DNA of 32,000 bases from Bacillus subtilis subsp. subtilis str. 168 (GTDB taxonomy: Bacteria > Bacillota > Bacilli > Bacillales > Bacillaceae). The DNA lies in the NCBI RefSeq assembly GCF_000009045.1, contig NC_000964.3:2040001-2072000 (forward strand). The letters are read 5' to 3'. The notes under the pieces were generated by a model. That model saw only the letters and a program-made list of their open reading frames with translations, was not told where the DNA came from and made no database searches. How positions within the stretch are numbered: the first letter of the stretch is position 1; each line of letters opens with the position of its first letter. The position numbers and the translations under genes were made by a program. Below, piece by piece: positions 3,678 through 31,285 of the stretch.

Positions 3678-3932
3678 ATGGCGATTATTATCAACATTGA
3701 TGTGATGCTTGCTAAGAGGAAAATGAGCGTAACAGAGCTTTCAGAGAGAGTTGGCATCACCATGGCTAATCTTTCGATATTAAAAAACGGAAAAGCAAAG
3801 GCTATTCGATTATCAACTTTAGAAGCGATTTGCAAGGCTTTAGAATGTCAGCCCGGGGATATATTGGAATACCGAAGTGATGAAGACACAGGATTCGTAA
3901 AGAAAAAATATGAAGGATCAACAGAAAAATAA
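3678..3932 (+). CDS. yozG: Small XRE/Cro-type HTH transcriptional regulator (84 aa)
   Basis: GAGGTGA RBS, start 10 nt after the yoaS stop. HTH core MSVTELSERVGITMANLSILKNGKAKAIRLSTLEAICKAL. Confidence 0.85.
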   Translation: MAIIINIDVMLAKRKMSVTELSERVGITMANLSILKNGKAKAIRLSTLEAICKALECQPGDILEYRSDEDTGFVKKKYEGSTEK

Positions 3933-4037
3933 AGTGATTGGCGGTGAGCTTATGGACATAAACTTATATCCATCTAGCTGCTATACTAAGCGTCCCTTTC
4001 ATACACGAAGAACACAACTATGGAGGAGGCATACATC

Positions 4038-4832: not shown

Positions 4833-4861
4833 CATACGCATACAAGCTCCCAAATAGAGTG

Positions 4862-4895
4862 AAAAGCAACGTTCAAATGGTTGCTTTTTTCTTTT
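4862..4895 (+). terminator. Rho-independent terminator after yoaT, probably bidirectional with yoaU
   Basis: aaaagcaac / gttgctttt 9-bp stem, 9-nt loop, T-run. The reverse strand also ends in TTTT. Confidence 0.7.
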
Positions 4896-4955
4896 ATGTA
4901 ACTCTGCCGGTGAGTATTCATCTTCTTCAAATTTCATCGCAACACGATAACTGAT

Positions 4956-5828
4956 TCAGATTACAACTGCTTTCAACACTTTGACAAACTCATGCGCCGC
5001 CGGCGTTATCTCTTCAAATGAATGTGCGATGACGCCAATATCGCGTGTGACCCTAGGAAAGATGTCCTTTTTAATCAATTGATGCGGGACGGATGAAAGT
5101 GTAAAGTTTGAAATGATGCCGATACCCAAGTTATTTTTGACCATATTAATCAAGGTTTCGGCATTTTGCACAGTTAAGTTTTCCTTTAATTCGATGTTGT
5201 ATTGCGAAAATGCGTTTGACATCGCGATTTCATGACCGCCTTTACAAAAAATGAGGTCATCTTGATATGTTTCAAGGTCGACATGCTTTTCAAGTTTTAA
5301 TTCGTCACGCTGCGGCGGGATGACGGCCACCATATAGTCGTTACACAATAGCTGATTTTCAAACGGTTCAAATGGAGATGCTGCGATCCCGATATCAACC
5401 GTCCGATCTTCAACCCATCCTTTTATTTGGTCAGAGGTTCCTTCGATCAATTCTATGCGGATCAGCGGGTAGTTTGATCTGAATGCCGCAATCGCCTGTG
5501 GCATGATATTTGTTGAAACTGCAGGAAATGAACCAATTTTCACCTTCCCGTTTAACAGCTTGTTTTCCCGGTTGGCTACTTGATATATTTTGCTTTCAAT
5601 TCCCTTCATTTGCCTCGCCAGCAGCAATATTTCTTTTCCGATGTCAGTCAGCATTAAACCATGATGTTTATCCCTGATCAATAATTTGAGCTGCAGTGAG
5701 CTCTCCAGGTTTTTTATCGCTTTACTTACCGCCGGCTGAGAGATGAACAATTCTTTTGCCGCTTCTGTAATATTTAATTTCTCCCCAACTTTTACAAATA
5801 TGTGAAGATGGTTCATGTTCATAACCAT
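4956..5828 (-). CDS. yoaU: LysR-family transcriptional regulator (290 aa)
   Basis: Track ORF 4956-5963. The likely start is MVMNMNHLHIF at 5828, after GGGGG. N-terminal LysR HTH: LNITEAAKELFISQPAVSKAIKNLE. Divergent from the EamA transporter gene. Confidence 0.85.
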   Translation of the reverse strand: MVMNMNHLHIFVKVGEKLNITEAAKELFISQPAVSKAIKNLESSLQLKLLIRDKHHGLMLTDIGKEILLLARQMKGIESKIYQVANRENKLLNGKVKIGSFPAVSTNIMPQAIAAFRSNYPLIRIELIEGTSDQIKGWVEDRTVDIGIAASPFEPFENQLLCNDYMVAVIPPQRDELKLEKHVDLETYQDDLIFCKGGHEIAMSNAFSQYNIELKENLTVQNAETLINMVKNNLGIGIISNFTLSSVPHQLIKKDIFPRVTRDIGVIAHSFEEITPAAHEFVKVLKAVVI

Positions 5829-5928: not shown

Positions 5929-6807
5929 ATGGTAAAAGTTATGCTGGGAATCATATCTGTCACACTTATTTGGGGTTATACTTGGGTTGCGATGAAAGTA
6001 GGAATTCATGACATCCCCCCGCTTTTATTTTCGGGTTTGCGCCTGTTCATCGGAGCAGTTCCTTTATTTCTCATTCTCTTCATCCAAAGAAAAAAGCTTT
6101 CAATTCAAAAAGAACATCTCAAAAGCTATATCATCATGAGCCTGTTGATGGGGCTGGGCTATATGGGGATTTTGACGTATGGAATGCAGTTTGTCGATTC
6201 AGGGAAAACCTCTGTTTTGGTATATACAATGCCTATATTTGTTACGGTGATCAGCCATTTTTCATTAAACGAGAAAATGAATGTGTATAAAACGATGGGA
6301 CTGGTCTGCGGCCTCTTCGGACTGTTATTTATATTTGGAAAGGAAATGCTCAATATCGATCAAAGCGCTTTATTTGGGGAGCTGTGCGTACTTGTGGCAG
6401 CGCTTAGCTGGGGAATCGCGAATGTGTTCAGCAAGCTACAATTCAAGCATATCGATATTATTCACATGAATGCCTGGCACCTTATGATGGGAGCCGTCAT
6501 GTTATTGGTGTTTTCCTTTATATTTGAGGCGGTCCCTTCAGCCGAGTGGACATATCAGGCGGTGTGGTCATTGCTGTTTAATGGCTTGCTTTCCACCGGC
6601 TTTACCTTTGTCGTATGGTTTTGGGTGCTCAATCAAATCCAAGCGTCAAAAGCATCCATGGCATTAATGTTTGTTCCCGTATTGGCCCTATTCTTTGGAT
6701 GGCTGCAATTGCACGAACAGATCACCATCAATATTATCCTCGGCGCACTGCTGATATGCTGCGGGATTTTTATGAATACATTTACATTTTCACGACGGAA
6801 AGTGTGA
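5929..6807 (+). CDS. yoaV: EamA/DMT-family transporter (292 aa)
   Basis: About ten hydrophobic segments in two similar halves. Divergent from the LysR gene, a classic regulator/exporter arrangement. Confidence 0.85.
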   Translation: MVKVMLGIISVTLIWGYTWVAMKVGIHDIPPLLFSGLRLFIGAVPLFLILFIQRKKLSIQKEHLKSYIIMSLLMGLGYMGILTYGMQFVDSGKTSVLVYTMPIFVTVISHFSLNEKMNVYKTMGLVCGLFGLLFIFGKEMLNIDQSALFGELCVLVAALSWGIANVFSKLQFKHIDIIHMNAWHLMMGAVMLLVFSFIFEAVPSAEWTYQAVWSLLFNGLLSTGFTFVVWFWVLNQIQASKASMALMFVPVLALFFGWLQLHEQITINIILGALLICCGIFMNTFTFSRRKV

Positions 6808-6904
6808 ATGATATACATTTCCCCTGTCATTTGGGCTTCATGTGACAGGAGAAGACTATTACGAGAAAGTCTTCTAGAATCCTGACGACAGCCTATTAAA
6901 CAAT

Positions 6905-6938
6905 GAAAAAAGCTAATGTCTGCATGTAGACATTAGCT
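6905..6938 (-). terminator. Rho-independent terminator of yoaW
   Basis: Perfect 11-bp stem agctaatgtct/agacattagct with a 6-nt loop. An A-run on + gives a T-run on -. Confidence 0.75.
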
Positions 6939-6979
6939 TGGCTGGCGTTTAGGCTGGTGAGAATCCAGATACTTTTTTA

Positions 6980-7411
6980 TTACCATTCTGGCTGATCAAA
7001 CTGAAAACCGTATAGACCTTTTACTTTAACATCTCCGCAATCTGGATCTTTTGTCAAAATCAAATAATGAGTCTTATAAGGCATCGTCTCAACTCGATCA
7101 GTTGCACTAAAATCAAAATGATCCCCCGAGAAGTTTTTTTCACTAACGGTTATTTCATATCCTGACAAAGTCATTCGCATGATTCTTGCGTTAATTGTAC
7201 ATCCTTCAGTATCGAAAATGGTGAATCTGTACCCAAAGTGAGATGTCCAATGGTTTGAATTTAGGTCATCAGACTTCATAAACCATTTTTCATTCTCTGT
7301 CATTGTAAAACTCACTTTCTCCTCATCTTTCACGATAACGGCCGAAGCTTCCCCTACATGGATAGTCAAAGCCAAAAGAAATGTAAAAGCTAACATCAAC
7401 ATCTTTTTCAA
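6980..7411 (-). CDS. yoaW: Secreted protein of unknown function (143 aa)
   Basis: TTG start 7 nt after GGAGG. Signal peptide MKKMLMLAFTFLLALTIHVGEASA/V. Confidence 0.8.
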   Translation of the reverse strand: MKKMLMLAFTFLLALTIHVGEASAVIVKDEEKVSFTMTENEKWFMKSDDLNSNHWTSHFGYRFTIFDTEGCTINARIMRMTLSGYEITVSEKNFSGDHFDFSATDRVETMPYKTHYLILTKDPDCGDVKVKGLYGFQFDQPEW

Positions 7412-7621
7412 AAGAGTTCCTCCCGATATCTTTTACTTCAATATATTGGAAGGGTCTTTTCTGATCAAGACAGTCTTCTCCAAATGAATCTTTAGCACCA
7501 TGAAATGAGCCTTAATAAGAACAGTTTTAACCCAAATCAACCTCTATTCGAAATAAGGCTTACCAATCTATATTCTTTTTAAAAGTTTCTGCATTTCTTT
7601 ATTTAGCTCCTAGACACATAT

Positions 7622-7649
7622 AAAAAATGCTCCTATAAGTTCAGGAGCA
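7622..7649 (-). terminator. Rho-independent terminator of yoaZ
   Basis: tgctcct/aggagca stem; the - strand reads stem then TTTTTT. Confidence 0.65.
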
Positions 7650-7674
7650 CTACAAAAAACTGCTAAAGTGTTTT

Positions 7675-8307
7675 CTATCGATTTATTGTATTCATTAGCT
7701 CAAAGAAATATTCAGGCTTTTGAGTCTTATTTAGCTTATACCATGAACGCAATGTATCTGGTGCAAATACATCTAATTTTTTCAATACTTCTACCGCAAA
7801 TTCCAGAGGAGCAATTCCTGATGCAGTAACCAAATTTTCATCAGATACTGCAGGCCCCTTTTCATAGAATGTTTCTCCTTTGTAATTAGGGCAGACCATA
7901 TTCATATAGTCGAGGTCATTGCTTGTGTGCTTTCTCGAATTTAAGTATCCTTCATTCGCGAGGCCCAAGGTTGCCCCACAAATTGCAGCAATAGTCGTGC
8001 CGAGCTTTAAAGCGTCGCCAACTTTTTTCAAGATCGGCTGATGAATATCTTCTCCCCAAGTGTTTCCTCCGGGTAAAATGATAAGATCTTGACTCCCAAG
8101 AGTACATTCGTCAAGAGAAATATCTGGTTTTATGCTTAATCCTCCCAACGTAGTTATCATTTCTTTATTAACCCCTACTGTAACTACTTTTAAAGATGCT
8201 GCATCTTGTTTAAAGTATCTCCCTGAGTTTAGTTCCGCAATTAAATATCCATATTCCCAGTCTGACATTGTGTGAAATACGTAGAGATAAACTTTTCTCG
8301 TTTGCAT
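7675..8307 (-). CDS. yoaZ: DJ-1/PfpI (class I glutamine amidotransferase-like) family protein (210 aa)
   Basis: Track ORF 7675-8322. The ATG at 8307 follows GGAGTG. IILPGG...AAICGATLGLA places the nucleophile-elbow Cys in the DJ-1/PfpI context. Confidence 0.8.
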   Translation of the reverse strand: MQTRKVYLYVFHTMSDWEYGYLIAELNSGRYFKQDAASLKVVTVGVNKEMITTLGGLSIKPDISLDECTLGSQDLIILPGGNTWGEDIHQPILKKVGDALKLGTTIAAICGATLGLANEGYLNSRKHTSNDLDYMNMVCPNYKGETFYEKGPAVSDENLVTASGIAPLEFAVEVLKKLDVFAPDTLRSWYKLNKTQKPEYFFELMNTINR

Positions 8308-8532
8308 CCAATAACACTCCAATCACAATTGATAAAGCTTTCTAATAGATGACTTTGCTGACAGTCATTGTCAGCTTTTTTGTTGATTCTATTCTTATGC
8401 CCTTGTTCTCCCAACTTATAAAAATATAAGATCAATTGATTCTATGTTTACTAGCGCAAAGGGGTTTGTTACACTAACTGTCATGGGAAACATTTCAAAG
8501 GTAATACAAAATCATTTGAATGAGGAGGCCTG

Positions 8533-9949: not shown

Positions 9950-10312
9950 TTATAATAATTCATATTTTTGTATCGTTGCACTTGGTGGATTTGACTCTTT
10001 TCGTGTATGGAACCACACTTTTATTTTTTCACCTCTTTTGAGATCATCTGTGTTATCAATCTCACTTAATCCTACAATTACTATGTTATTTTTAAACTTG
10101 TTCATAAGTTGTCCTTCAGAAAGATTGTAATCTTCTTTTCCTGGAGCTTTTGTATCGGTAATGAGAATTGCCCTTTCATTGTCTTTAAGCACGACATAGC
10201 CTACTAGGCTCTGCATCTTTGTTTCGTCTCCGTTTTGTTCATTTTTATTGCAGCCTGCAAGGAAAATAATGAGCATAATGAGCACTATCAAGCTTACTCC
10301 GATTTTAGGCAT
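9950..10312 (-). CDS. yobA: Lipoprotein of unknown function (120 aa)
   Basis: GAGGAGGAAG RBS. Lipobox: MPKIGVSLIVLIMLIIFLAGC/NKN. Confidence 0.85.
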   Translation of the reverse strand: MPKIGVSLIVLIMLIIFLAGCNKNEQNGDETKMQSLVGYVVLKDNERAILITDTKAPGKEDYNLSEGQLMNKFKNNIVIVGLSEIDNTDDLKRGEKIKVWFHTRKESNPPSATIQKYELL

Positions 10313-10688
10313 CTTTCTTCCTCCTCTTTAAACTCATCTTTAAAATAAACAACAGGATATCACCCAACCCATCTACTTCTTTTTGCAATTCATAACAGCA
10401 GCATACTCATTCTCCAATTCCTCAACCTTCTTTTTATTCTTTCTCAAATATTTGCATGTGGTAGCCCTCGATATTATCCGCTTACTCATTTTTGCGCTTT
10501 CAAATATATTATTGAAGGCCGCTTCTTTCTGGATTCCAGCATAAATATACTTATCCTTACTGTCGTTTACTATCGCAACTTCCATTAAAATCGAGATTTT
10601 TACTTTTTTTATGATCCATTATTCACTTCCAAAATAACTTCCAATTACAACATAATATATGTATAAATTGTAAATGGAGTTGATGTAA

Positions 10689-10952
10689 TTGAAGATTAGG
10701 AAAATCTTATTGAGTTCTGCTTTATCCTTTGGCATGCTAATATCCGCGGTTCCCGCATTGGCTGCTGGCACTTCGTCTGAGGTTGCAGTAAAAAATGAAG
10801 AATATGATTATGACACTATATACCGCATTAGTCCTCTGCCAATGGACTTCCAGCCAACAATAGAATACAACGGTTATACTTATACGCTTACACGTCATTA
10901 TTTTGATTACTCAATCGGGTTTTACACGGCTATTTATACAAAAGTTGTTTAA
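10689..10952 (+). CDS. yobB: Small secreted Tyr-rich protein (87 aa precursor, ~62 aa mature)
   Basis: TTG start after GGAG. Signal peptide (M)KIRKILLSSALSFGMLISAVPALA/AGT. The mature part has 10 Tyr in 62 residues. Paralog at 20817-21077. Confidence 0.75.
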   Translation: MKIRKILLSSALSFGMLISAVPALAAGTSSEVAVKNEEYDYDTIYRISPLPMDFQPTIEYNGYTYTLTRHYFDYSIGFYTAIYTKVV

Positions 10953-10957
10953 ACTTA

Positions 10958-10986
10958 TAAAGGAGCTTTTTAGCTCCTTTTTCTCT
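10958..10986 (+). terminator. Rho-independent terminator of yobB
   Basis: aaaggagct/agctccttt stem followed by ttctc. Confidence 0.75.
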
Positions 10987-11328
10987 TGTTTTAAGCAAGG
11001 TATTTCTTTCTATGTGGTCCCCTATCAAATACAACATCAACATTCTCCAGTTCTCTTTGACACGAACAAAATCTAAAGTTTGGTTTTAAATGCTGGTAAT
11101 AAAAAATTCACTTTAAAGAAGTGCCGCCCGCAAAATACGGCTTTTGTACACTACGCCAATTTTATATTGAAAAGCCAGACCTCCTCAAAGAGGTTCCAGC
11201 TTTTCTTAATGTGCTATCGATCTTCGTTAGTTCAACGGGAACTTTATCATTCGGTACAAATGCAGCCTCCCAACTTCTAGTTAGGGCTGATGGCGGAATA
11301 TCTGACGGTTCTCTACACACATCAGACA

Positions 11329-13989
<2,661 letters not shown>

Positions 13990-21108: not shown

Positions 21109-21827
21109 ACCTTTTTAAGCAAGATATTTCTTTCTATGCGGTCTTTTATGTATGAAATCAAATGCTTTCCCTAATTCCTTCTCTTCTGTTACCGCTGAGT
21201 CCATATCTTATATTGCATCTAAGGTTTAGTCAGTCGAGATCATTGAATATATAGTACTTTACTCAGAACATTTTGCTTATTAAGGACATAATAAGTGTTC
21301 GTATTAATTTTTCCTGTTACGATAACGATCAAAAACAAAATAATTTATCTCATTTTAAGACAGAAGTTATTCTGCTTTTTCAAAAAAATATTCTTGATTT
21401 TCCCTTTTTTAGATGCATCCATAAAGCATTCGATCATAACCATTATATGTAACTGAAATGCAGGTATAAGAGTTATTATATAGGGATTACACTACCATTA
21501 TCTGGGGGTGTATTAACATCCAAATACTCAAAAGCAAGAACAAATGTACCCATAGCACTTCCATTTCCACACCCTATCCAAATTTTCATTTTCCTAATTC
21601 CACATCAAAATCACCCTTTTTCACATCGTAATCACTATCGTAAAAGCCTATAGTATCAACGTTTTTCCTTCTTAAAATTTTCTTTTTTTATAAATATCTT
21701 CCCAAAACAACCACTTTCCCCTACTCCCGCTTATGTTTTACGATCGTTTACCCCCTATTTACTAATTAAAGTATCAAAAATTCTTATGTTTACTGTCTTT
21801 TTAGCTCATTATAAATTTTTACGATAA

Positions 21828-21995
21828 GCAATTGCCTTTGCTTTTGGATATGACTTGACTGTATTTGGTGACGATTTAACAGAGAAATTTAATGCTCTTC
21901 TGACTTTTTTAACTGCATTGGGCATTATTGTTGATCCAACAACTCAAGGTATTTCTGATAGTGAACAAGCAATGGATTATGATTCACCGAGATAA
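21828..21995 (+). pseudogene. C-terminal ~55 codons of a phage holin (phi LC3-type)
   Basis: AIAFAFGYDLTVFGDDLTEKFNALLTFLTALGIIVDPTTQGISDSEQAMDYDSPR*. The LGI(I/V)VDPTT.G.SDS..A..Y..P tail is the signature C-terminus of that holin family as I remember it. An in-frame TAA at 21825-21827 separates it from MFTVFLAHYKFLR (from 21786). Confidence 0.55.
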
Positions 21996-22000
21996 ACCCC

Positions 22001-22036
22001 ATACCCTTCTCTTGATTGAGGAGGGTATTTTTTTCG
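22001..22036 (+). terminator. Rho-independent terminator after the holin stub
   Basis: atacccttctc/gaggagggtat stem with one mismatch, then T7. Confidence 0.7.
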
Positions 22037-22149
22037 TTTTTTCAAATGAAAAAATTGCAGAAAACTTTACATCCTTTTACAATTTTTTCAATGACTATGT
22101 TATGATTGTTTTCGAGAGATTTTTGAAATTTTCAGAAAGAGGGGTTTAA

Positions 22150-23265
22150 ATGAGTAAGATCGCTTCTGAAGTTGTCGCTACTACACTGAATGACTGGTAC
22201 ATTGCTATAAAAAAACAAAAGGTTGATGAATCAATAAAATATTATTCAGAGATAAAGAAACTTTTTGATGAAATGGAAGAAGATCAAGAAGTTCTTGCGT
22301 ATTATAGTCTATTAGAAGAAAGACATAAAATGTTGCTGCATTCTTCACGAGGAGAGCCTTTACAAAAGCACACCTATTTTACTGAAGACAATCAAAACTT
22401 CATAACAAAAACAAATGATAAATTAGAATACAACTTTTATTTATTTGAAGCAATGTACGAGGCATACAACAAAAACTATGATCGAGCAATTAACCTATAT
22501 GGATTAGCTGAGAAAAAGCTTGCAGAAATTCCAGATGAAATTGAAGCAGCTGAATTTTACTCTAAAGTCTCTTACTTATATACTCTTGTTAAACAAAGCA
22601 TTGTGGCACAACATTATATAAAAAATGCAATTTCAATATATAAGCGACACCCTGATTATAAATGCAAACTAGCTACATCAACAATGATTGCAGCTGCAAA
22701 CTATGCTGATATGAAACGATTTGAGGAAGCAGAACAATATTACTTAGAAGCAATTGATATTGCAAAAGAAACAAAAGATGAATTTTTAAAAGCTCAATTA
22801 TTTCACAATCTTAGTATCGTTTATTCTGATTGGAACAAACCTGATAAATGCATTGAATCTCTTGAAAAAGCAATAGGAAATGAATCTTGGTTACATTCGA
22901 TTTATTATATAAATTCTTTATTCATGATGATTAAAGAACTCTTTAAAATTGACGAAAAAATGAAAGCCATTAATTTTTACAATAAAGCACAGGAAAGACT
23001 CATATTAATGGAGAATAAAGTATACGAAGCCAAAATCAGCATCCTGTATAACCTTTATTGTGGGGAATTAAAAAATAATTTCAATAATTGTATTAGTAAT
23101 ATTGAGTTTTTAAAACAGCAAAATGAACTTGAAAGTGTAGATGAATTGTCCTACATAGCTGCAAAAAGGTTTGAATCAATAGGTGCTTTTGAAGAAGCAA
23201 CGAGCTTTTTCAATGCGAAAATTTGGGCTGAACAGAAAATGAATCAGGTGGAGGGAATCTTATGA
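22150..23265 (+). CDS. rapK: Rap-family response-regulator aspartate phosphatase / TPR quorum-sensing receptor (371 aa)
   Basis: AGAGGGG RBS. TPR-repeat-like sequence along its whole length. The stop overlaps the start of a phr gene (ATGA). Confidence 0.9.
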   Translation: MSKIASEVVATTLNDWYIAIKKQKVDESIKYYSEIKKLFDEMEEDQEVLAYYSLLEERHKMLLHSSRGEPLQKHTYFTEDNQNFITKTNDKLEYNFYLFEAMYEAYNKNYDRAINLYGLAEKKLAEIPDEIEAAEFYSKVSYLYTLVKQSIVAQHYIKNAISIYKRHPDYKCKLATSTMIAAANYADMKRFEEAEQYYLEAIDIAKETKDEFLKAQLFHNLSIVYSDWNKPDKCIESLEKAIGNESWLHSIYYINSLFMMIKELFKIDEKMKAINFYNKAQERLILMENKVYEAKISILYNLYCGELKNNFNNCISNIEFLKQQNELESVDELSYIAAKRFESIGAFEEATSFFNAKIWAEQKMNQVEGIL

Positions 23266-23384
23266 AAAAACTTGTGCTTTGCGTATCTATTTTAGCTGTG
23301 ATTTTAAGTGGAGTAGCTTTAACGCAATTGAGTACAGATTCACCATCTAACATCCAGGTAGCTGAAAGGCCAGTCGGAGGTTAA
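23262..23384 (+). CDS. phrK: Phr signalling peptide precursor (40 aa); mature pentapeptide ERPVG
   Basis: Not in the ORF track because it is under 60 aa. ATG overlaps the rapK TGA. MKKLVLCVSILAVILSGVALTQLSTDSPSNIQVAERPVGG* is a signal peptide plus a C-terminal ERPVG. Confidence 0.9.
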   Translation: MKKLVLCVSILAVILSGVALTQLSTDSPSNIQVAERPVGG

Positions 23385-23405
23385 AAAAGGTTGATTAATT
23401 AATTT

Positions 23406-23440
23406 AGCCCTACTCAAACATTTGAGTGGGCTTTTATTTT
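23406..23440 (+). terminator. Rho-independent terminator of rapK-phrK
   Basis: agccc(t)actcaaa/tttgagtgggct stem followed by tttatttt. Confidence 0.75.
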
Positions 23441-23509
23441 ATGATTTATGTCCACCGGTCAGCCCTGCTCTGTGGAGCGCAGTACCTGCAAACGTAACTG
23501 AGATACTTC

Positions 23510-24547
23510 TCACTGTTTTTTGCCCGAGTAAAACTTATTAAAGAACATCAAGCAACACTTATAAATATCCATCGTGATATTTGTGGGAAAATCAATTGTT
23601 TTGGATCGATGAAAACCACCGCCAAGCTCATCTTTACTGTATCCAATTCCTAGACTTATTGTTCGACCAACTTTATTATATGTACGTGCCCTTCTTGCGA
23701 CTTCCTCACAAATCTCCAAGAGCACAGCTTTAATCTCTTCTCTCTTTGTATAATCCCTAAACAAAATCTGACTCTTACCAAAACTAATCTGCCCCTGCAT
23801 CAATGGAGCTCCTATTTCAGATAAATCAATTCCGTGAGCATGATAGTACAACTGGTTTCCCATTATTCCGAACTTCTTTTCAAGCAGCTCTAAAGGAAAT
23901 TTAGCTAACTGACCTACAGTTGATATACCCATTCGATTCAGATTTCTTTCCATCCTCCCTCCTATCCCCCACATTTTAGACAAAGGTCGAACTTTCCAGA
24001 GTCTATTTGGCACATCTTCATATCTCCAACGTGCAATACCACTCTTTGTTTTCTTACTCTCCAGGTCAAGTGCAAGCTTACTAAGCAACATATTGTCACC
24101 AATTCCAACTGTGCACATCAAACCAAATTCTCTCCACATGCTGCTTTGGATTGCTTTGGCCATTTCTTCAGGATTCTCTTTTCCTGCATCTAAAAAAGAT
24201 TAATCAATTGAATACGTGTGGACACATTTTTCAGGAACAAATCTGTAAAACAGCTTTGTAATCTCAGTTGAAACTCTGATGAAAAGCTTCATTTGTGGAT
24301 TTACAATGTATATTCTTGGATCTTCAGGTATCTCAAATAGTCTCGATCCTGTTTTGATTCCAAAATCTTTTTTAAGTGCAGGAGATGCAGCTAACACTAC
24401 ACTTCCCTGTCTATCCGTATTCCCTACAACGGCAAGATAACATGTTAAAGGATTAAGCCCCATTGCTACAGCCGATACAGAAGCATAAAAGGATTTCATA
24501 TCGACACAGAGTATATTCTCACGTGGAAATTGTGAGTAATCAGTCAT
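23510..24547 (-). pseudogene. yozK/yobH: Y-family (UmuC/UvrX/PolY2-like) translesion DNA polymerase, split into two ORFs by an in-frame TAA and truncated at the 3' end
   Basis: The 24200-24547 product has CVDMKSFYASVS (motif I) and ends ...VHTYSID*. The same frame continues SFLDAGKENPEEMAKAIQ... into ORF 23510-24163. The TAA at 24200-24202 therefore occupies the Glu of the conserved SIDE.FLD motif. Total length is ~345 codons against ~415 for intact relatives. Confidence 0.85.
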
Positions 24548-24833
24548 TGTATATAACTCTTATGATGTTATTCATGTTGATATAAACTGTATTGTCGTTC
24601 TGGTCTTTTACGTGAAGCTTTTGTTGTTCAAAATTAATGTAATGTACTCTGCCGGTAACATTTTCAACAAATCCCTTGTTAAAGAGTTTGAATTTCAACT
24701 CTTTATTAAATTCCAATGCCTCAGAAACGAGAATATCCATCTCATCAATTTGTTTGTCATCTAAAGATGGCTTTTCAACTTTTGATCCATCAATCAAATC
24801 TTGTTTAAGCTGTATTAATTGTTCTAGCATCAT
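24540..24833 (-). CDS. yozL: YolD-like protein (97 aa as an ORF); probably lacks its ancestral N-terminus through a frameshift
   Basis: Overlaps the polymerase start (ATGACTGA), as in yolD-uvrX and yqjX-yqjW. There is no RBS in front of 24833. A good RBS (AAGGAGTGA) serves a 12-codon ORF, MFRDRGTINGHQ* (24830-24868), in another frame. Confidence 0.65.
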   Translation of the reverse strand: MMLEQLIQLKQDLIDGSKVEKPSLDDKQIDEMDILVSEALEFNKELKFKLFNKGFVENVTGRVHYINFEQQKLHVKDQNDNTVYINMNNIIRVIYND

Positions 24834-24901
24834 TGATGTCCATTGATAGTTCCTCGATCCCTAAACATATCGACTCACTCCTTGATTGATCTAATATCAA
24901 C

Positions 24902-24915
24902 AGAACAAACGTTCC
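24902..24915. promoter_or_regulatory. LexA (DinR) SOS box 1
   Basis: AGAACAAACGTTCC fits the Cheo box GAAC-N4-GTTC and the consensus CGAACRNRYGTTYC at 13 of 14 positions. Confidence 0.7.
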
Positions 24916-24931
24916 TTATTCAATATAGATC

Positions 24932-24945
24932 AGAACAAAAGTTCG
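24932..24945. promoter_or_regulatory. LexA (DinR) SOS box 2
   Basis: AGAACAAAAGTTCG (- strand CGAACTTTTGTTCT) is GAAC-N4-GTTC. It overlaps a - strand TTTACA-17-TCTATA promoter-like element. Confidence 0.65.
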
Positions 24946-25041
24946 ATGTAAATGTTGGTAATAAAATATAAAGGTCAATAATGATATCCGTAGTATTAAT
25001 AAAGGAGAGATTCTTTTCGACGAGGGAGAGTGTGATGGTGA

Positions 25042-25377
25042 ATGAAGAAGAGGTTAATTGGATTTTTGGTCTTAGTTCCTGCTTTGATTATGTGGGGTAT
25101 AACTTTAATCGAATCAAACAAAAAGACCCCTGTAGAAGTTTTAGAAAGTGCTTGGGATGAATTTGGGTTATTTAGTTTTGAAATTGGAATAACAGATCCG
25201 GCAATTACAATAGGCATGGATCAAACCAAAAGTGAAGCAAAACTCCGTGAATATTTAAAAGATAATCTGTCTAGAGAAGCCAAGGAAAAATATAAGATTT
25301 ATATATTCAAGGATGATACTGATAAGCTGGAGAAAGAGCATCAAGAATATTTGAAAGAAAATAATCTCAATAAGTAA
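25042..25377 (+). CDS. yozM: Membrane-anchored or secreted hypothetical protein (111 aa)
   Basis: GAGGGAGAG upstream. N-terminal hydrophobic segment MKKRLIGFLVLVPALIMWGITLI followed by a charged C-terminal part. Confidence 0.7.
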   Translation: MKKRLIGFLVLVPALIMWGITLIESNKKTPVEVLESAWDEFGLFSFEIGITDPAITIGMDQTKSEAKLREYLKDNLSREAKEKYKIYIFKDDTDKLEKEHQEYLKENNLNK

Positions 25378-25423
25378 AACGCCCAGCAATTAAAACTGGA
25401 CGTTAAAAAACATTAGTTATTCT

Positions 25424-28400
25424 TTATTTTTTTTTAGTATTCACACGTAATCTCTCTCTATCTTCTTTAAAAGAGGATATGTAGTTTTTAGACTCTAATG
25501 CAGTCACCAACGCTTTATTAGTTCTATTATTTGAGATCTTTATTCGTCTGCCTTTTTCAGCAATTTCAGAGTAAGGTTCCCCTATTTTAGTTAAAAATTC
25601 AGTAATTGATTCATTATCAATATGCTTTATTTGTCCAGCTAGCAACGATAACCTAGTATCCAATGTTGTAGGTGATTCAAGCAAAAAGGTTAGTAGTTCA
25701 TTGGTGATTTTCAGGTTATGCTCATTAATAAAATAAATTGTATCTTTAAGAATATCATTATTTCCATCTGTCAAACAGTTAGAATTTAAATGTTGTACAA
25801 ATATTTCTTTGTTAAATTGAGAGAGCTCGTTGCTATCTATGAGTTGCTTTATATCATTGGCATCAAGGGAAAAATCACCTTGTTTATCAATAAACTCGTC
25901 AGGGTTTCTCAAAGCGAGTTGGATATGAAGTGTATCAAAATTTAATTTTAACTCTTTAAAATTTTCCGGTGTTAGAGATAACAAATCATTATCAATCAAT
26001 AATTTTGCTCTTTTTTCACTAACATTTCCGAGCGGAAAGTAAATCCAACTTTGAATACTAGCAATTAACACTTCGAATGTTTCGTCTGTAATATCCCGAC
26101 TATTAATGATTTCTTCTGAGATATCTTCTAAAATCGCTTCGTCAAATTTATCATCAAACGCCTCTATATTATTTTTAGAGAGCTCTTTTCTATTAACAGG
26201 ATTGTTTAAGAAAGCTATTAAGAAATCAGGCATTTTTTTATTGTATTCTACATAAGAAGTAATAACGTTTGACCAGCATGCAACCATTTTATTTTCACGG
26301 ATCACAATTGGCCATAACTCTTTAATCAATTCACCAATATCCGAGATGGCAAAAGTTTTTTTCATGATCATTGCATGCTTTACTCTCTTATCTAAATCCT
26401 CCCGATTTAATAACTCCAGAAAACTTTCCTCTGGTTCCTCAATCTCCTCAGTAAGTAAAACTTTTTCAACAAATATATCAATATTGTCATTTACGTAATT
26501 GATAACAGCCTGCTGATCAGAGTTTTTAACTGCAGCATACGTTATATTGGGAGCATCATTTAAAATAACTGATAAAGTTTTGATATTAATTTCGTATAGA
26601 TTTCGTTGAACAACAAAGTCATATATTGTTTCAGAATTTAGCAAATGATCCAAACTTTTAAATTTAACTTGGAGTTTTAATAGTAGTTCTTTTATTTTCT
26701 CCTCATCAGATACTAAGCTGAGAAGATTTAAGTACTTGGATAATGTGAAAGACATGACCGACTCTTTATTCATTCGGATAATATCAGCTATATCAGCATA
26801 TGTAAGTATATCTGACAAGTATTCCTCTTTTTTCTGTTGTGTATAATTGGATCTAAGTTCAATAAAACTCCAAAAATCATCCCATTTACTAGATATCGAT
26901 TGGATAAAGGCAGCTTTATTTATTGCCCTTTCTTTAAAACCATCTATGAATGTAACAGATTCTTTACTTCCATTTGCAAGTCGCTCAATTATGCTATCAT
27001 AATAATTACGGTATTCAGAATGATCCATTATATAGTTTAAGAGATGAAAATTAAGTACCTCTATTTGCTTAAATTCAGCACCAACTAATTTGCTCATTAT
27101 TTTACCGATATTATCCAGCTCAAAGCTGTAAGGCAATGACTCGTGGTTTTTAATACTAAATACAAATTTAATATCGGAAAGACTTAAACTTTCTGGATAG
27201 AAGTAAGTGATGTAATGGTTATACATTTCATCAATATATCCATGACGTAGCAGGTAAACAAGTAATTTTTTCTCGTAAAGCTTATCAGAAAATACATCCT
27301 TTGAATTCATTTTTGTAATTAATACTTGTAAAGATTGCGCTCTTATTTCTTGCTTTTCTCTCTCTAATTCCAATAGTTCTTTCTTGAATTTTTGGATTTC
27401 ATTTTTCTCTATAGCCTTGATGGCATCTTCTCTTTCAAAGTAGTTCGGTTTCCGACCAAAAACAGTTGCAATTTCTTTAATTGTCGCTGGACCATTTCTA
27501 TTTCTTAAATAACAATAGATAGTATCCGCATTTTTTAACTTCTCAAAAAACCGATCTTTATTAGATGTATTGCCTCTAAATACCTCGCCATCTATATTAA
27601 TATCATAATTAGAATTCAAATTTGATATTTCTAATTCGCTCAAGTATATAAAATTTAATTCAGCAATTGATTTTAAAGACTCAACTTCTATATTCGCTAA
27701 TTTCCTCTCTAATTGTTGTATTTTAGCATTAATTAATTTTATTTGTTCCTCAATTATAAGTTGTTTTTTTTGAAAGATTTCATATACCAACCCTTTGTTA
27801 TATTGTAATTTAGAAAAATCCACAGGATAAATATTTTTGTAGATTATCATTGCTAACATTTTGTTAGGATCAAGATCAATTGCACTTAGTTTTTGTTGGT
27901 ATATAACAAATTCATTAAAAATATTCTTTAATACTCTCATGTCATCAATGTAAATTGTTACATCCTCTAAGAAATGAGTGTTTATCAAATCAGAATATGG
28001 TGAATGTTTTATTTTCTTTTTAAGTATGTCTCCTGAATTAGATGCATTAATAATTGGTATTACTGGGATAATAAAATCAAAAAATTTTGTGCGGTCTCTA
28101 GTTAACTTTTCAGTGTCTGCATCTCCAAAAATATCATCTTTTATCGCATATATAAAAACAACACGTCTATCTATTTGTTCTGAATTATTTATAAGTTCAT
28201 TTAATTCTCTTAATCTTTCAAAAATACCTATATTATTAAAGCGATCTAAGTCCTCAAATATTACAACATTATACTTGGAGGCTTCAAAAAAATATAATAT
28301 TTCATCTAAATATTTATCAAATATAGAAGAGTTTTCTTCCCCTGTATTTTTTTCTAACGTTGTATTAGCAATTGTAACCTTATTCAATTTTAAGTTGGCA

Positions 28401-29029
28401 CGGACAAAATGATAAATTCTTTTATATGCGAGTAGAGGATATACTATAAAGAACAGTGCTAATAATATAGTCAGTCGTATTTGTTGCTGATCTTCAGTAC
28501 CGAGACTCCTTGAAACTAACGTCTCAGCATATATTCCTTTAAGTGCATCAGGTTTAAAAAGGTAGATGCCAACTATAATAAATGCAAAAAAGAAAATCAA
28601 ATTTATAATTATGCTCTTAGTCCTTATATGCTTAATTCTTTTAAACCTAGAAAAGGGAATGGTTCTATCGTGTACCCGGTATATCATTTGTTGCAAGATG
28701 CTTTTCTCTAACTTATTCTCCATATCATCCGTATCTGTGTTGAATGTAGCTAAGGATATATTTAAGAAACTATATTCCCTGCTGTATTGTTTTTGAAAGG
28801 TATTTAATATGCTACTTTTTCCAGACCCGTAGGGACCAGTTAGGGCGATATTTTTCACTTTTTTATTTTCTAACCCCCAACTTAGTGCTTTAGAATATTT
28901 TCCATCAGTGTCGACATCATTGCTAGGAGAAAGATCTTCAAAAAGGCTTTCTTCCTTAACATTAGGTTCTTTTAGTCTAATCAGAAGTTTCTCTAACCAC
29001 TGCACAAATTTTTTTTTGATTTCCCCCAA
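25424..29029 (-). CDS. yobI: Large KAP-like P-loop NTPase with a TM hairpin inserted in the NTPase domain and a ~900-aa helical C-terminal region (1201 aa)
   Basis: Track ORF 25424-29038. The TTG at 29029 has better spacing (10 nt) from AAGGA. Walker A is LTGPYGSGKSS (28811-28837). Two hydrophobic helices, SIIINLIFFFAFIIVGIYLF and LTILLALFFIVYPLLAY, lie at about 28424-28615. Walker B-like NVVIFEDLDRF is at 28244-28267. Confidence 0.9.
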   Translation of the reverse strand: MGEIKKKFVQWLEKLLIRLKEPNVKEESLFEDLSPSNDVDTDGKYSKALSWGLENKKVKNIALTGPYGSGKSSILNTFQKQYSREYSFLNISLATFNTDTDDMENKLEKSILQQMIYRVHDRTIPFSRFKRIKHIRTKSIIINLIFFFAFIIVGIYLFKPDALKGIYAETLVSRSLGTEDQQQIRLTILLALFFIVYPLLAYKRIYHFVRANLKLNKVTIANTTLEKNTGEENSSIFDKYLDEILYFFEASKYNVVIFEDLDRFNNIGIFERLRELNELINNSEQIDRRVVFIYAIKDDIFGDADTEKLTRDRTKFFDFIIPVIPIINASNSGDILKKKIKHSPYSDLINTHFLEDVTIYIDDMRVLKNIFNEFVIYQQKLSAIDLDPNKMLAMIIYKNIYPVDFSKLQYNKGLVYEIFQKKQLIIEEQIKLINAKIQQLERKLANIEVESLKSIAELNFIYLSELEISNLNSNYDINIDGEVFRGNTSNKDRFFEKLKNADTIYCYLRNRNGPATIKEIATVFGRKPNYFEREDAIKAIEKNEIQKFKKELLELEREKQEIRAQSLQVLITKMNSKDVFSDKLYEKKLLVYLLRHGYIDEMYNHYITYFYPESLSLSDIKFVFSIKNHESLPYSFELDNIGKIMSKLVGAEFKQIEVLNFHLLNYIMDHSEYRNYYDSIIERLANGSKESVTFIDGFKERAINKAAFIQSISSKWDDFWSFIELRSNYTQQKKEEYLSDILTYADIADIIRMNKESVMSFTLSKYLNLLSLVSDEEKIKELLLKLQVKFKSLDHLLNSETIYDFVVQRNLYEINIKTLSVILNDAPNITYAAVKNSDQQAVINYVNDNIDIFVEKVLLTEEIEEPEESFLELLNREDLDKRVKHAMIMKKTFAISDIGELIKELWPIVIRENKMVACWSNVITSYVEYNKKMPDFLIAFLNNPVNRKELSKNNIEAFDDKFDEAILEDISEEIINSRDITDETFEVLIASIQSWIYFPLGNVSEKRAKLLIDNDLLSLTPENFKELKLNFDTLHIQLALRNPDEFIDKQGDFSLDANDIKQLIDSNELSQFNKEIFVQHLNSNCLTDGNNDILKDTIYFINEHNLKITNELLTFLLESPTTLDTRLSLLAGQIKHIDNESITEFLTKIGEPYSEIAEKGRRIKISNNRTNKALVTALESKNYISSFKEDRERLRVNTKKK

Positions 29030-29784
29030 AAAAAACAAATCCTTTCTAAACTTTCAGGTGTAATACGAATTAATAAAACTGGAGCAAAGAACTAAATAAA
29101 TGAGTATGTAGCAATGACAAATCATTTCTCTTCCATCTAATATAGTCCTTTATCGCCAGTTGAAATTCACTATTAATTGTAACATGAAAGGGCATTAAAA
29201 GTTTCTGAAAAAAAGATGATCAATAAACAACACAGCGCCCAATTACAGGACTGTTTCATATTTAAATTGAATTTTTATAAGCATTAATTGCTTCATTTCG
29301 CAGCAGCATATTATCTTTGTTAACCATGCCTAAGTTGTAAGCTTTTTTGATAATATCTAATACCTGAGAATCTAACGCCGAAAGATTACCGCCTGGATTA
29401 AATCTTGATTTCCAATAATCTAAAGAATTATTTAGGTCAAGTGAGCTTTTTTTGTTCTCGGGTTTAACTACTTCATTTTTCTCAAGTGTTTCACAGAATT
29501 CACTAAAACCAATGGATCTACTGGGAGCTGAGTTATTTCCCCCGTATCCTTCTGTAGCCAAGCTGCAAAATGCTAAGAATTTTGGATCATAAATAAGATC
29601 GCTTCAGTTTACATTTACCACTGATAATCACAATCCTCTCAAAGCTTTTTATAATTGTAGCACCTTTTCCATTTTTACACATATTAAATATCGACAATCA
29701 TTCAAATGATTTAATAATTGAATACAAAAAAGAACCTGCATTTTGCAAGTTCCTTTCACGTTGTCAATATATTGTGAATTTTTA

Positions 29785-29813
29785 ACGACAAGGGCATTTA
29801 TGTATAGTATGAT
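29785..29813 (+). promoter_or_regulatory. Probable bsrE promoter
   Basis: ACGACA, 17 nt, TATGAT. Positioned to give a ~255-265 nt transcript ending at the 30051-30086 terminator. Confidence 0.4.
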
Positions 29814-29882
29814 ATTTCCTGTACAGTAAGTTTTGCTCACTCGAGGGAGTCTTGCTCATCCCCTAATGAAAGGGGTGATGCT

Positions 29883-29975
29883 ATGTCAACATTCCAGGCA
29901 TTAATGCTAATGCTTGCAATCGGGTCGTTTATAATCGCCCTATTGACGTATATAGAAAAAATAGACCTCCCTTGA
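29883..29975 (+). CDS. bsrE: Type I toxin, 30-aa hydrophobic peptide
   Basis: Not in the ORF track. GGGGTGA RBS then ATG: MSTFQALMLMLAIGSFIIALLTYIEKIDLP*. The N-terminal MST..(S/A)LM.M motif is shared with the TxpA/BsrG type I toxins. A convergent antisense RNA unit overlaps its 3' end. Confidence 0.85.
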   Translation: MSTFQALMLMLAIGSFIIALLTYIEKIDLP

Positions 29976-30127
29976 GCCTCAGAACCTGAAGGGATAGGCC
30001 TACCTAGAACCACATCGAGCAAGCCCTTTGATGGGCAACTTTTTGTACAGAGCCGGGGTGTTGGTAGCACCTCGGTCTTTTTTATTTTATGCATTTCTCA
30101 TTAAAGAAATGCACTGTAATGTATTGT
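29956..30127 (-). ncRNA. sr5: Antitoxin antisense RNA SR5 (ends approximate)
   Basis: The - strand extended -10 TGTTATAAT (30134-30142) predicts a start near 30127. The - strand terminator is a hairpin at 29966-29998 followed by TCTATTTTTT (to ~29955). The predicted ~170-nt RNA is complementary to the 3' part of the bsrE mRNA, including the last codons. Confidence 0.7.
30051..30086 (+). terminator. Rho-independent terminator of bsrE
   Basis: agccggggtg/cacctcggtct stem with G-U pairs, then ttttttatttt. Confidence 0.7.
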
Positions 30128-30243
30128 AAAACTGATTATAACACATTTTCCGTGAAATGCATTACAATAAACCTCAAGAGACTTGGAAAGCTTTTTTATT
30201 GTTTCTTGTAACGTTATAATGATCTAAAATAGCGCACAAGCCT

Positions 30244-31086
30244 TTATACATCTTCATCATTTCTTACTCTTCTAGCTCGTCTTTCAACATTCCAATTCCC
30301 AATCTTTCCCCAGACATTCTTGTTAGTCCATTTCCCTAGCTTAGTTTTATCAAACCATTCCTGAAACAAAGATATTTCATCTTTCCTTTGCATTGTATCT
30401 TTTAAAAGGAAATAATGTATTATCCAAAAGATATAAAGAGCTGAACAAGAAAGTCCAAAAATAAGTTTATTTACCTCTAACCAATTTCCTAAAACTTGTT
30501 CGCCTAAATATTTATCATATAGAAGGGGTATAAAAGCAAATGCTGAAGCACCGACAAAAAAAGCTAGAGTTTCTTTAAACCATCTAACAAAAACAAAAAC
30601 AGCGCTTAAAATATAATTCGTTCTAAAAAGAACTTTATACCAATTATAATTCTTGTTTAGAGTAACAAATATACTTCTATATTCTTTATTAACTGCTTGA
30701 TCTAACATTCTCATTTTATAAAATAATTTTTTCCTATTCTCGCTGTTCTTGTTTAAAATATACTCTCTGAAACAATCTTCTGTATTCAAAATTTGATCTA
30801 TCAATAAGATGTTTCTAAGTTTTGATAGCTTCCCCTTTTTCCCACTATATTCTTCGAAAAATTTTTCTATAAGGACCATTTTATGGTTTTCATCTTCTTC
30901 ATTCTTTATTTCTTTTAGGGAATAATACATAGGCTCTAAAATTTTTTCTAATGTTTCACCTGATTGAGAGTAGAATCGTTCTATACTTTTTTGTCTTTGA
31001 TTGAATAGCAATGCAACTATACCCGTAATTACTGCAGTAAGAATACCATTTTGTTGTATCCAATTCCAAATATCTAATAACTCCAA
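30244..31086 (-). CDS. yobJ: Membrane protein of unknown function (280 aa)
   Basis: TTG start 7 nt after GGGGAGA. One N-terminal TM (ILTAVITGIVALLF), a ~130-aa soluble K/E-rich region, three C-terminal TM segments and a basic tail (ERRARRVRNDEDV). Confidence 0.8.
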   Translation of the reverse strand: MELLDIWNWIQQNGILTAVITGIVALLFNQRQKSIERFYSQSGETLEKILEPMYYSLKEIKNEEDENHKMVLIEKFFEEYSGKKGKLSKLRNILLIDQILNTEDCFREYILNKNSENRKKLFYKMRMLDQAVNKEYRSIFVTLNKNYNWYKVLFRTNYILSAVFVFVRWFKETLAFFVGASAFAFIPLLYDKYLGEQVLGNWLEVNKLIFGLSCSALYIFWIIHYFLLKDTMQRKDEISLFQEWFDKTKLGKWTNKNVWGKIGNWNVERRARRVRNDEDV

Positions 31087-31196
31087 TTAAGCTTCTCCCC
31101 TTCTCTCTGAATTTACTTTTAATACGGGCTAAAATAAAAAAGGTTTCATATAAAACGGGACTAGAAAACTTCTGTCACTTTAATTATTTAATCCAA

Positions 31197-31228
31197 TAAA
31201 ATAAGCTCTCATTGCGAGAGCTTATTTT
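31197..31228 (-). terminator. Rho-independent terminator after yobK (bidirectional shape)
   Basis: Perfect stem aataagctctc/gagagcttatt with a 5-nt loop, flanked by aaaa and tttt. Confidence 0.75.
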
Positions 31229-31285
31229 ATTTAGATTGAGGATGTGCAACTCAAGCCTTCTATTGCGCTATAGCAATACTTTTGC

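Follow-up and report, generated by a model that had tools for sequence, protein, structure and literature searches.

YobI, the Bacillus subtilis name-giver of the YobI/Tmn family, is a probable membrane-anchored anti-phage sensor-effector

Within a 32,000-nucleotide stretch of the Bacillus subtilis subsp. subtilis str. 168 chromosome (NC_000964.3, positions 2,040,001 to 2,072,000; hereafter the window, meaning the whole of that stretch, whose numbering we use throughout) lies yobI, a long gene whose product joins a P-loop NTPase to a pair of membrane helices and a helical tail of many hundreds of residues, and the locus raises the question of what so large a protein might do within the remains of a prophage. 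An earlier note, made from the letters alone, had proposed a nucleotide-driven, membrane-tethered sensor or effector in phage defence. Comparison with Tmn (transmembrane NTPase), a defence protein of E. coli and other enterobacteria, speaks for this: the PADLOC Tmn model matches at E 1.2e-81, profiles align over 980 columns and 12 of 12 essential residues are identical, all of which supports the proposed role. We hold with good confidence that yobI is the B. subtilis member, and the name-giver, of the YobI/Tmn family and encodes a single-gene membrane-anchored anti-phage sensor-effector. Its place in that family is, from the sequence comparisons, a near certainty; a role against phages or mobile elements appears highly probable, and rests on homology and context, not experiment.

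We asked first whether the gene was correctly delimited. The open reading frame (ORF) list gives a minus-strand frame from 25424 to 29038 (1204 amino acids, aa) when an upstream TTG is counted; we prefer the TTG at 29029, which yields 1201 aa and has a Shine-Dalgarno sequence, AAAGGA (29045-29040), 10 nt upstream, because the TTG at 29038 lies only 1 nt from that sequence. The 1201-aa ORF of the earlier note is thus real, and its Pfam match (PF20693, E 2e-128) is no product of chance. The exact protein shares a cluster with 'YobI [Bacillus subtilis subsp. subtilis 6051-HGW]', and the gene name yobI is therefore right. The parts of the gene are listed below, with the corresponding residues of Tmn-25, the variant probed by mutation in a 2026 preprint (Wu et al. 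2026, PMC13001434); predicted structure is from an AlphaFold 2 (AF2) model.

25424..29029, minus strand: yobI coding sequence, 1201 aa plus stop, TTG start (ORF list, Shine-Dalgarno sequence, protein cluster)
27782..28897, minus strand: YobI-type P-loop NTPase domain including the membrane hairpin, aa 45-416 (Pfam PF20693, AF2 core)
28814..28837, minus strand: Walker A GPYGSGKS, aa 65-72, with G70 and K71 equivalent to Tmn-25 G66 and K67 (motif search)
28556..28615, minus strand: predicted transmembrane helix 1, aa ~139-158 (Kyte-Doolittle maximum 2.84; AF2 helix 137-158; 7 K/R in the preceding 20 aa)
28421..28477, minus strand: predicted transmembrane helix 2, aa ~185-203 (Kyte-Doolittle maximum 2.12; AF2 helix 180-212)
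28244..28267, minus strand: Walker B VVIFEDLD, aa 255-262, then R263; D260 and R263 are equivalent to Tmn-25 D276 and R279 (motif search)
27401..27781, minus strand: predicted proximal arm, a 35-residue coiled-coil helix (~414-449) and a small alpha/beta module (~476-514) (AF2, residue mapping)
25562..27400, minus strand: predicted distal arm, all-helical solenoid-like repeats, aa ~544-1156, ~45 helices (AF2, local confidence mostly 82-92)
25427..25561, minus strand: predicted C-terminal small alpha/beta module, aa ~1157-1201 (AF2 strands ~1162-1166, 1186-1190 and 1193-1197)
25378..25404, minus strand: terminator-like hairpin directly 3' of the yobI stop, 10 pairs including 5 G-C (hairpin scan)

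The motifs that had been read by eye, a Walker A, a gap of ~65 aa to the first of two hydrophobic helices and a Walker B-like sequence, were all recovered in that order by motif search and Kyte-Doolittle analysis. Across the whole protein, 19-aa windows exceed a mean hydropathy of 1.6 in just two regions (~134-163 and 182-206), with no further hydrophobic segment beyond this pair. The Walker A residues G70 and K71 are invariant in 40 of 40 aligned homologues, as are D260 and R263. Charges are distributed according to the positive-inside rule, with 7 K/R before the first helix, a near-neutral 26-aa loop and 4-6 K/R after the second (4 K/R and zero acidic residues in the 20 aa that follow it), which predicts a cytoplasmic location for the two parts of the NTPase, the core being split by a two-helix membrane hairpin. 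Beyond the end of the Pfam domain at aa 416 comes a tail rich in K, E, N, I and L and predicted to be nearly all helical, as the earlier note had it, although its length is ~785 aa rather than ~900.

Which family does this architecture belong to? Pfam PF20693 (YobI-ATPase), which takes its name from B. subtilis YobI and which Pfam keeps separate from KAP_NTPase, matches aa 45-416 over the full profile (1-363 of 363) with 429.5 bits against a cut-off of 27. The lone strong PADLOC match is the Tmn model PDLC02220, which covers 85% of the protein (aa 10-1027 of 1201 against model positions 6-1089 of 1273); the same model gives 2060 bits for E. coli Tmn and 266-311 bits for seven diverse YobI homologues, and PF20693 in turn matches E. 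coli Tmn at 4.3e-104. When a profile of 76 YobI homologues was aligned to E. coli Tmn by hhalign (probability 100%, E 1.7e-78), the alignment ran over 980 columns, and homology between YobI and Tmn therefore reaches far into the tail, beyond the NTPase. A search of NCBIfam gave nothing meaningful (the best match, TIGR02928 Orc1/Cdc6 at E 2.8e-4, lies far under its cut-off), and a PHROGs search of YobI gave no match.

Residue-level comparison sharpens this relationship. Our proxy for Tmn-25 was WP_045133346.1, a protein from an E. coli plasmid with the annotation 'anti-phage transmembrane ATPase'. The 15 residues probed in Tmn-25 all occur in it under the same numbers, and we mapped the residues of the published mutant list (PMC13001434) to YobI through a 40-sequence alignment. 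Every one of the 12 defence-essential residues is identical in YobI (G70, K71, Y246, D260, R263, N281, K315, F316, R365, F495, Y530 and R533), and these positions are invariant or nearly so among the 40 homologues; in Tmn-25 itself, the G66A/K67A and the D276A/R279A mutations each abolish defence (PMC13001434). YobI does not keep the dispensable Tmn-25 residues L33 and K183 or the specificity-linked L867. Identity to E. coli Tmn falls from 34.5% in the NTPase domain to ~21% over aa 417-650 and 13-17% beyond.

The AF2 model, built from a 76-sequence alignment and numbered one lower than the protein, has a mean pLDDT (predicted local distance difference test) of 82.9 and a pTM (predicted template modelling score) of 0.39, the latter as one would expect of an elongated protein. 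It places the strands of the P-loop alpha/beta core at aa ~60-64, 88-92, 255-259, 291-296 and 319-322, and continues through two long helices at the hydrophobic segments, a coiled-coil helix, an alpha/beta module, a solenoid and, last, a small alpha/beta module at the C-terminus. Tmn has been described with the same layout. In this model the tail would comprise a coiled-coil proximal arm and an ARM/HEAT-like alpha-solenoid distal arm. The proximal arm holds F495, Y530 and R533, equivalent to Tmn-25 F506, Y541 and R544; the distal arm is homologous to that of E. coli Tmn up to aa ~1040; and a C-terminal consensus, ...YISSFKE...IRVNTK, is kept across the family alignment. A Foldseek search of the Protein Data Bank (PDB) found no close structure, returning weak class-level matches to ORC/Cdc6, RdrA and HslU for the N-terminus and to karyopherins, PP2A-A and importin-alpha for the tail, with Avs4 (8dgf) among the top global matches (E 9.4e-4, TM-score 0.13); a sequence-profile search of the PDB gave 0 matches. 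The structural check that had been suggested for this protein returned the order of parts expected from Tmn and no close PDB relative. What the earlier note called an uncharacterised tail has a characterised counterpart in Tmn, the proximal and distal arms that bind the phage trigger (PMC13001434).

The same note had read the hairpin as the mark of a KAP-family NTPase. A transmembrane hairpin inside the P-loop fold is there, and so is the KAP-like resemblance; membership in Pfam's KAP_NTPase (PF07693) is not, neither YobI nor E. coli Tmn giving a match at E <= 1, and the profile check returned YobI-ATPase and not KAP. Two of four YobI-family members scanned barely reach KAP_NTPase (cut-off 20 bits, scores of 22.3 and 20.8), in alignments that span the transmembrane insert, and the two families look remotely related, sharing this unusual insertion. 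To judge from the title of Aravind et al. 2004, an insertion of membrane segments in the P-loop domain is the KAP architecture, and its presence between Walker A and Walker B of YobI does not separate the families. The 2026 preprint describes the YobI family as phylogenetically distinct from KAP (PMC13001434), a 2025 paper labels Tmn a KAP member, and usage in the field is not uniform; we set aside YobI as a Pfam KAP member and regard 'KAP-like' as fair. Also rejected was a STAND/NB-ARC assignment, for which the best Pfam match, nSTAND_NTPase5, has E 0.094 and covers the P-loop region only, with no distinct effector domain detected. PifA, a KAP member, acts in phage exclusion, as summarised in PMC13001434.

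Might YobI instead be a KAP- or STAND-type NTPase with a membrane role outside defence, scaffolding or disassembling membrane complexes or exporting ions as a housekeeping protein? The KAP-type insertion (again from the title of Aravind et al. 2004), the two marginal KAP_NTPase scores and the weak Foldseek likeness to Avs4 and ORC/Cdc6-type ATPases all lean that way, but YobI itself lacks a KAP_NTPase match, its STAND-type matches are insignificant, its patchy, mobile-element-linked distribution is unlike that of a housekeeping gene and its closest characterised homologue is a defence protein. We consider such a role very improbable.

If YobI is an anti-phage sensor-effector, how would it work? 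The first account of Tmn in defence is, according to PMC13001434, that of Gao et al. 2020. Wu et al. 2026 describe Tmn as a 'YobI-family' membrane decamer, from an 11.6 Å cryo-electron microscopy map read through AlphaFold 3 (AF3) models: the cytosolic proximal arm of Tmn-25 (coiled coil and alpha/beta module) and its distal arm (ARM/HEAT-like solenoid) bind RIIB of phage T2, activation brings higher ATP turnover, selective Mg2+ export and plasmolysis, and the depletion of ATP then activates Gabija and Septu (all PMC13001434). A PADLOC search in the same study places Tmn in 5,915 genomes, of which 24% belong to Bacillota. The statement in the earlier note that no function had been demonstrated consequently holds for B. 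subtilis YobI in the searchable literature and fails for the family. By homology with Tmn-25, YobI would oligomerise in the membrane, where its cytosolic arms would bind an early phage protein; productive binding would raise ATP turnover, which would be coupled to export of an ion (Mg2+) and to ATP depletion, and the cytoplasm would collapse and phage development stall without gross membrane leakage. Whether the full Mg2+ and plasmolysis mechanism transfers from Tmn to YobI could, in our estimate, go either way. Since its arms share only ~13-20% identity with the Tmn-25 arms, YobI probably responds to a trigger that does not resemble RIIB.

We next compared the locus with SPbeta-family phages. 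These phages (phi3T, BUCT083 and SPbetaL1-8) match the window at 21826-25391 and 29256-30097 with 86-98% identity, and in them the two blocks stand ~22 bp apart, within the bidirectional terminator (GCCCAGC-N13-GCTGGGC) of the convergent genes yolC and yolB. Two features describe what lies between:

25392..29255, no strand assigned: 3,864-bp segment without counterpart in SPbeta-family phages, comprising yobI, 217 bp upstream of it and a rebuilt terminator (blastn breakpoints)
29176..29184, minus strand: candidate extended -10 element TGTTACAAT for yobI, inside the inserted segment (pattern match, inferred)

The blastn breakpoints fall at window 25391/29256 against phi3T 6241/6264 and BUCT083 7690/7713; at the junctions a search for a target-site duplication gave merely a 7-bp chance-level repeat. 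The G+C content of the yobI segment is 29.6%, that of the flanks 0.33-0.34 as a fraction and that of the whole window 35.5%. The description of yobI as a stand-alone gene in AT-rich DNA thus stands, and the gene has its own terminator-like hairpin (25404-25378), the left arm of which is common to the bidirectional yolC/yolB terminator of phi3T and BUCT083. Around it, a broken polymerase gene, YolD-like and YolC-like genes and PHROG matches mark a prophage remnant, in which yobI is, as these comparisons indicate, a self-contained single-gene cargo.

A related allele throws light on this setting. In B. subtilis GCA_008014635.1 a 70%-identical allele (positions 10001-13615 of the fetched locus) occupies the same yolC-side position; it adjoins a holin, an amidase and YomR/YomF-like genes and lacks the yolB-like ORF, and this locus is possibly a fuller SPbeta-like prophage. 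A 38-aa Hol_Tox-family gene there takes the place equivalent to that of bsrE/SR5, a type I toxin-antitoxin, in strain 168. Flank and gene align between the two loci as a single uninterrupted stretch of DNA at 82%, and we do not claim that the allele was exchanged between conserved flanks.

Such a setting invites the reading that yobI is a prophage 'moron', the same machine serving the SPbeta-type element itself, by superinfection exclusion or in competition with phages and mobile elements, and left over in strain 168. The exact 3.9-kb single-gene insertion at the yolC/yolB terminator of an SPbeta-type backbone, the second allele beside genes that suggest a fuller prophage, and the presence of other conflict cargo among the adjoining accessory genes (Rap-Phr, bsrE/SR5, and an LXG/LHH toxin with SUKH immunity) fit it. 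Yet a tblastn search of 50,697 deposited phage genomes gave no YobI match, so that carriage by active phages is undocumented, and most homologues elsewhere are chromosomal-island, transposon-cargo or plasmid genes. The moron reading overlaps the sensor-effector reading rather than excluding it, and we rate it as a real possibility that falls short of being probable.

Is the gene still expressed? A scan for a consensus sigma-A promoter upstream of yobI gave no more sites than shuffled sequence. The candidate extended -10 element TGTTACAAT would put the transcript start near 29169, and an RNA peak, ncr1855, has been reported just upstream of yobI (Irnov 2010). With the coordinate offset inferred from bsrE/SR5, whose reported coordinates set against the Rfam match put the window start near genome 2,040,000, ncr1855 maps to ~29076-29169, its 5' end coinciding with the predicted yobI start. 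The candidate leader (29076-29184, minus strand) also contains a second AAAGGA (29151-29146), followed by a 4-codon mini-ORF, ATGGAAGAGAAATGA.

These signals bear on whether yobI might be an inactive relic, its ORF intact in strain 168 and its expression or function lost. The decayed prophage region with its frame-broken Y-family polymerase (23510-24547), the promoter scan and the lack of a reported yobI phenotype in the searchable literature are what one would expect of a relic. Against this, a 3.6-kb stop-free ORF in 30% GC DNA is unlikely to survive unselected, all 12 essential residues are intact, alleles of the same length and 79-90% identity occur in five other Bacillus species, and the gene retains a good Shine-Dalgarno sequence, a candidate extended -10 element and the RNA peak reported upstream of it (Irnov 2010). 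We judge an inactive relic to be unlikely.

How widely, and in what company, does the sensor-effector family occur? More than 6,500 YobI homologues were scored, nearly all full length, and at least 433 species-representative genomes carry one, spread over Bacillota, Bacteroidota, Campylobacterota, Beta-, Gamma- and Deltaproteobacteria and Lentisphaeria; a homologue is also present on 640 plasmids, 480 of them conjugative. Two homologues sit in Tn7-like elements, a Virgibacillus homologue lies in an island with a Metallophos-nSTAND4 protein, Nmad3, a GmrSD fragment and a UvrD-like helicase, a Clostridium homologue directly follows a type I restriction-modification (R-M) system, and the context of a Bacteroides locus is less clear. 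For 27 further species, the 108 proteins encoded by the two closest ORFs to either side include matches to type IIG and type I R-M genes, PglX, mad2 and an OLD/AriA-like ATPase, and ORFs 7-10 kb away (74 proteins) include IetA, ThsB, PtuA and several PADLOC candidate systems; with defence genes both near and 7-10 kb away, YobI homologues therefore appear to sit in extended defence islands. In this sample the nearest ORFs average ~448 aa, against ~317 aa at 7-10 kb. Upstream of the homologue in Oceanobacillus jordanicus stands a 640-aa OLD/AriA/GajA-like ATPase (6447-8366 of the fetched locus), a neighbour worth noting in view of the reported synergy between Tmn and ATP-sensing systems of the Gabija and Septu types. 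We found no conserved partner gene, the neighbours differing across all sampled loci, and YobJ, considered as a partner, was rejected since it is absent from 90 of 90 fetched loci.

Within Bacillus, alleles of the same length and 79-90% identity occur in B. spizizenii, B. atrophaeus, B. inaquosorum, B. halotolerans and B. mojavensis. Variation among Bacillus alleles is uneven: the P-loop is 80-98% identical, but among the more divergent alleles identity drops to 46-58% in the proximal module and in the distal solenoid, a concentration in the arms that fits the arms as specificity determinants. In two alleles, P0005 and P0006, the proximal module (aa 417-543) is the segment that varies most, ~50-51% identical against 74-93% in adjacent regions, a drop that suggests mosaicism or diversifying selection. 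A further interpretation can be drawn, in which YobI is a prophage-borne Gram-positive branch of Tmn that departs substantially from the E. coli model: it would sense a non-RIIB protein of Bacillus phages through its divergent arms, with an output that, where outer membrane and periplasm are lacking, is possibly another ion or a growth arrest without classical plasmolysis, and SPbeta-type phages would have at the yolC/yolB terminator a defence slot whose content is exchanged and diversifies; the slot is suggested because alleles of 70-90% identity occur and the proximal module drops to ~50% in some. Taken as a whole this is a tentative picture, and we think it rather doubtful.

Several points weigh against reading yobI as an active anti-phage sensor-effector of the Tmn kind. 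Identity between YobI and Tmn-25 is merely 13-17% past aa ~650, and the last ~160 aa of YobI are aligned to Tmn by neither profile method. The mechanism comes from a preprint whose 11.6 Å map was read through AF3 models, and the five Tmn variants assayed are all from E. coli, P. aeruginosa or K. pneumoniae (PMC13001434); plasmolysis as described for Tmn may not transfer to a Gram-positive cell. We found no experiment on B. subtilis YobI itself in the searchable literature, and loss of function in strain 168 is conceivable, with a decayed prophage and a broken polymerase gene adjoining. The neighbourhood check that the earlier note had suggested did find R-M, PglX and OLD/AriA-like genes near homologues, but the distal-ORF control was itself defence-rich, and we offer the contexts as description, making no claim of a statistical enrichment.

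The genes around yobI in the window complete the description of the locus:

22150-23384, plus strand: RapK-PhrK quorum-sensing cassette, 98.4% DNA identity to the BUCT083 cassette
23510-24163 and 24200-24547, minus strand: frame-broken UvrX/YolE-type Y-family DNA polymerase, two ORFs
24540-24833: YolD-like gene
25042-25377: yozM, YolC-like gene
29262-29561: YolB-like 99-aa ORF
29822-30075, plus strand: bsrE/SR5 type I toxin-antitoxin (Rfam BsrG family, 235.8 bits)
30244-31086, minus strand: yobJ, 280-aa unknown membrane protein with predicted hydrophobic helices at ~aa 10-28 and 205-228

The flanks that the earlier note had described, a type I toxin-antitoxin of the BsrG family, a toxin/immunity pair and decayed prophage genes, are all present: yobK is a SUKH immunity gene and yobL encodes the C-terminus of an LHH nuclease toxin, its LXG domain lying outside the window. 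Compared with PADLOC, the window neighbours of yobI gave no match. The part homologous to the phages starts at 21826, in the holin region or immediately beyond it, and lysis and structural genes to the left have therefore been lost; the likeness of the RapK-PhrK cassette illustrates that the block from 21826 onward is SPbeta-type accessory DNA. The polymerase is divided into an IMS N-terminal part and a part with the IMS C-terminal region, HhH and IMS_C, and as a gene split into two ORFs it is therefore a pseudogene. The homologous gene of BUCT083 is interrupted in another way: within it lies a reverse transcriptase/maturase gene (3769-5580) that is probably a group II intron. Between yobI and yobJ is also where Irnov et al. 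2010 located bsrE/SR5. The stretch around yobJ (30098-31269) is without phi3T homology, and the corresponding BUCT083 interval has instead a GNAT gene and two SUKH genes; YobJ has no Pfam, PHROG or PADLOC match, and yobJ is, by these comparisons, a further variable cargo gene that is not linked to YobI elsewhere. The window also contains, unrelated to yobI, a match to the Bacillus small RNA ncr1015 (Rfam RF02449; 13990-14109, plus strand, 130 bits, E 4.5e-21).

The identity of yobI and its likely role are already recorded in Pfam, in the PADLOC Tmn model and in the mechanistic work of 2026, where the family bears the name of YobI; modest additions are the insertion of this one gene into an SPbeta backbone and the diversity of its alleles at that site. 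A native Tmn homologue in B. subtilis 168, the best Gram-positive genetic model, could show whether a mechanism of ATP collapse, Mg2+ export and plasmolysis holds without an outer membrane, and the precise insertion of yobI in an SPbeta-type backbone offers a natural isogenic comparison, with and without the cassette.

Three known systems frame the protein. With Tmn it shares the Pfam domain PF20693, the PADLOC model and the order of parts (Walker A, two transmembrane helices, Walker B, coiled coil, alpha/beta module, solenoid), and both are single-gene systems of similar length (1201 aa for YobI, 1273 for Tmn) carried on mobile DNA. They differ in that the YobI host is Gram-positive, that yobI is carried by an SPbeta-type prophage remnant and not by a plasmid of the F or I type, and that the specificity-linked position L867 is without counterpart in YobI; YobI is known here from sequence and model, and the decameric state from Tmn-25 only. 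KAP NTPases (PF07693; Kidins220/ARMS, PifA) resemble it in placing membrane helices between Walker A and Walker B of a P-loop NTPase and in their large, variable non-catalytic regions, whereas neither YobI nor E. coli Tmn matches KAP_NTPase (E <= 1) and Pfam gives YobI a family of its own. STAND proteins of the Avs (AVAST) type are likewise single large polypeptides that combine a P-loop NTPase with a long helical-repeat sensor binding a phage protein; by contrast, the YobI family has no separate N-terminal effector domain, the membrane hairpin and NTPase together apparently being the effector, and Tmn is a membrane decamer (PMC13001434) where Avs proteins form a soluble tetramer.

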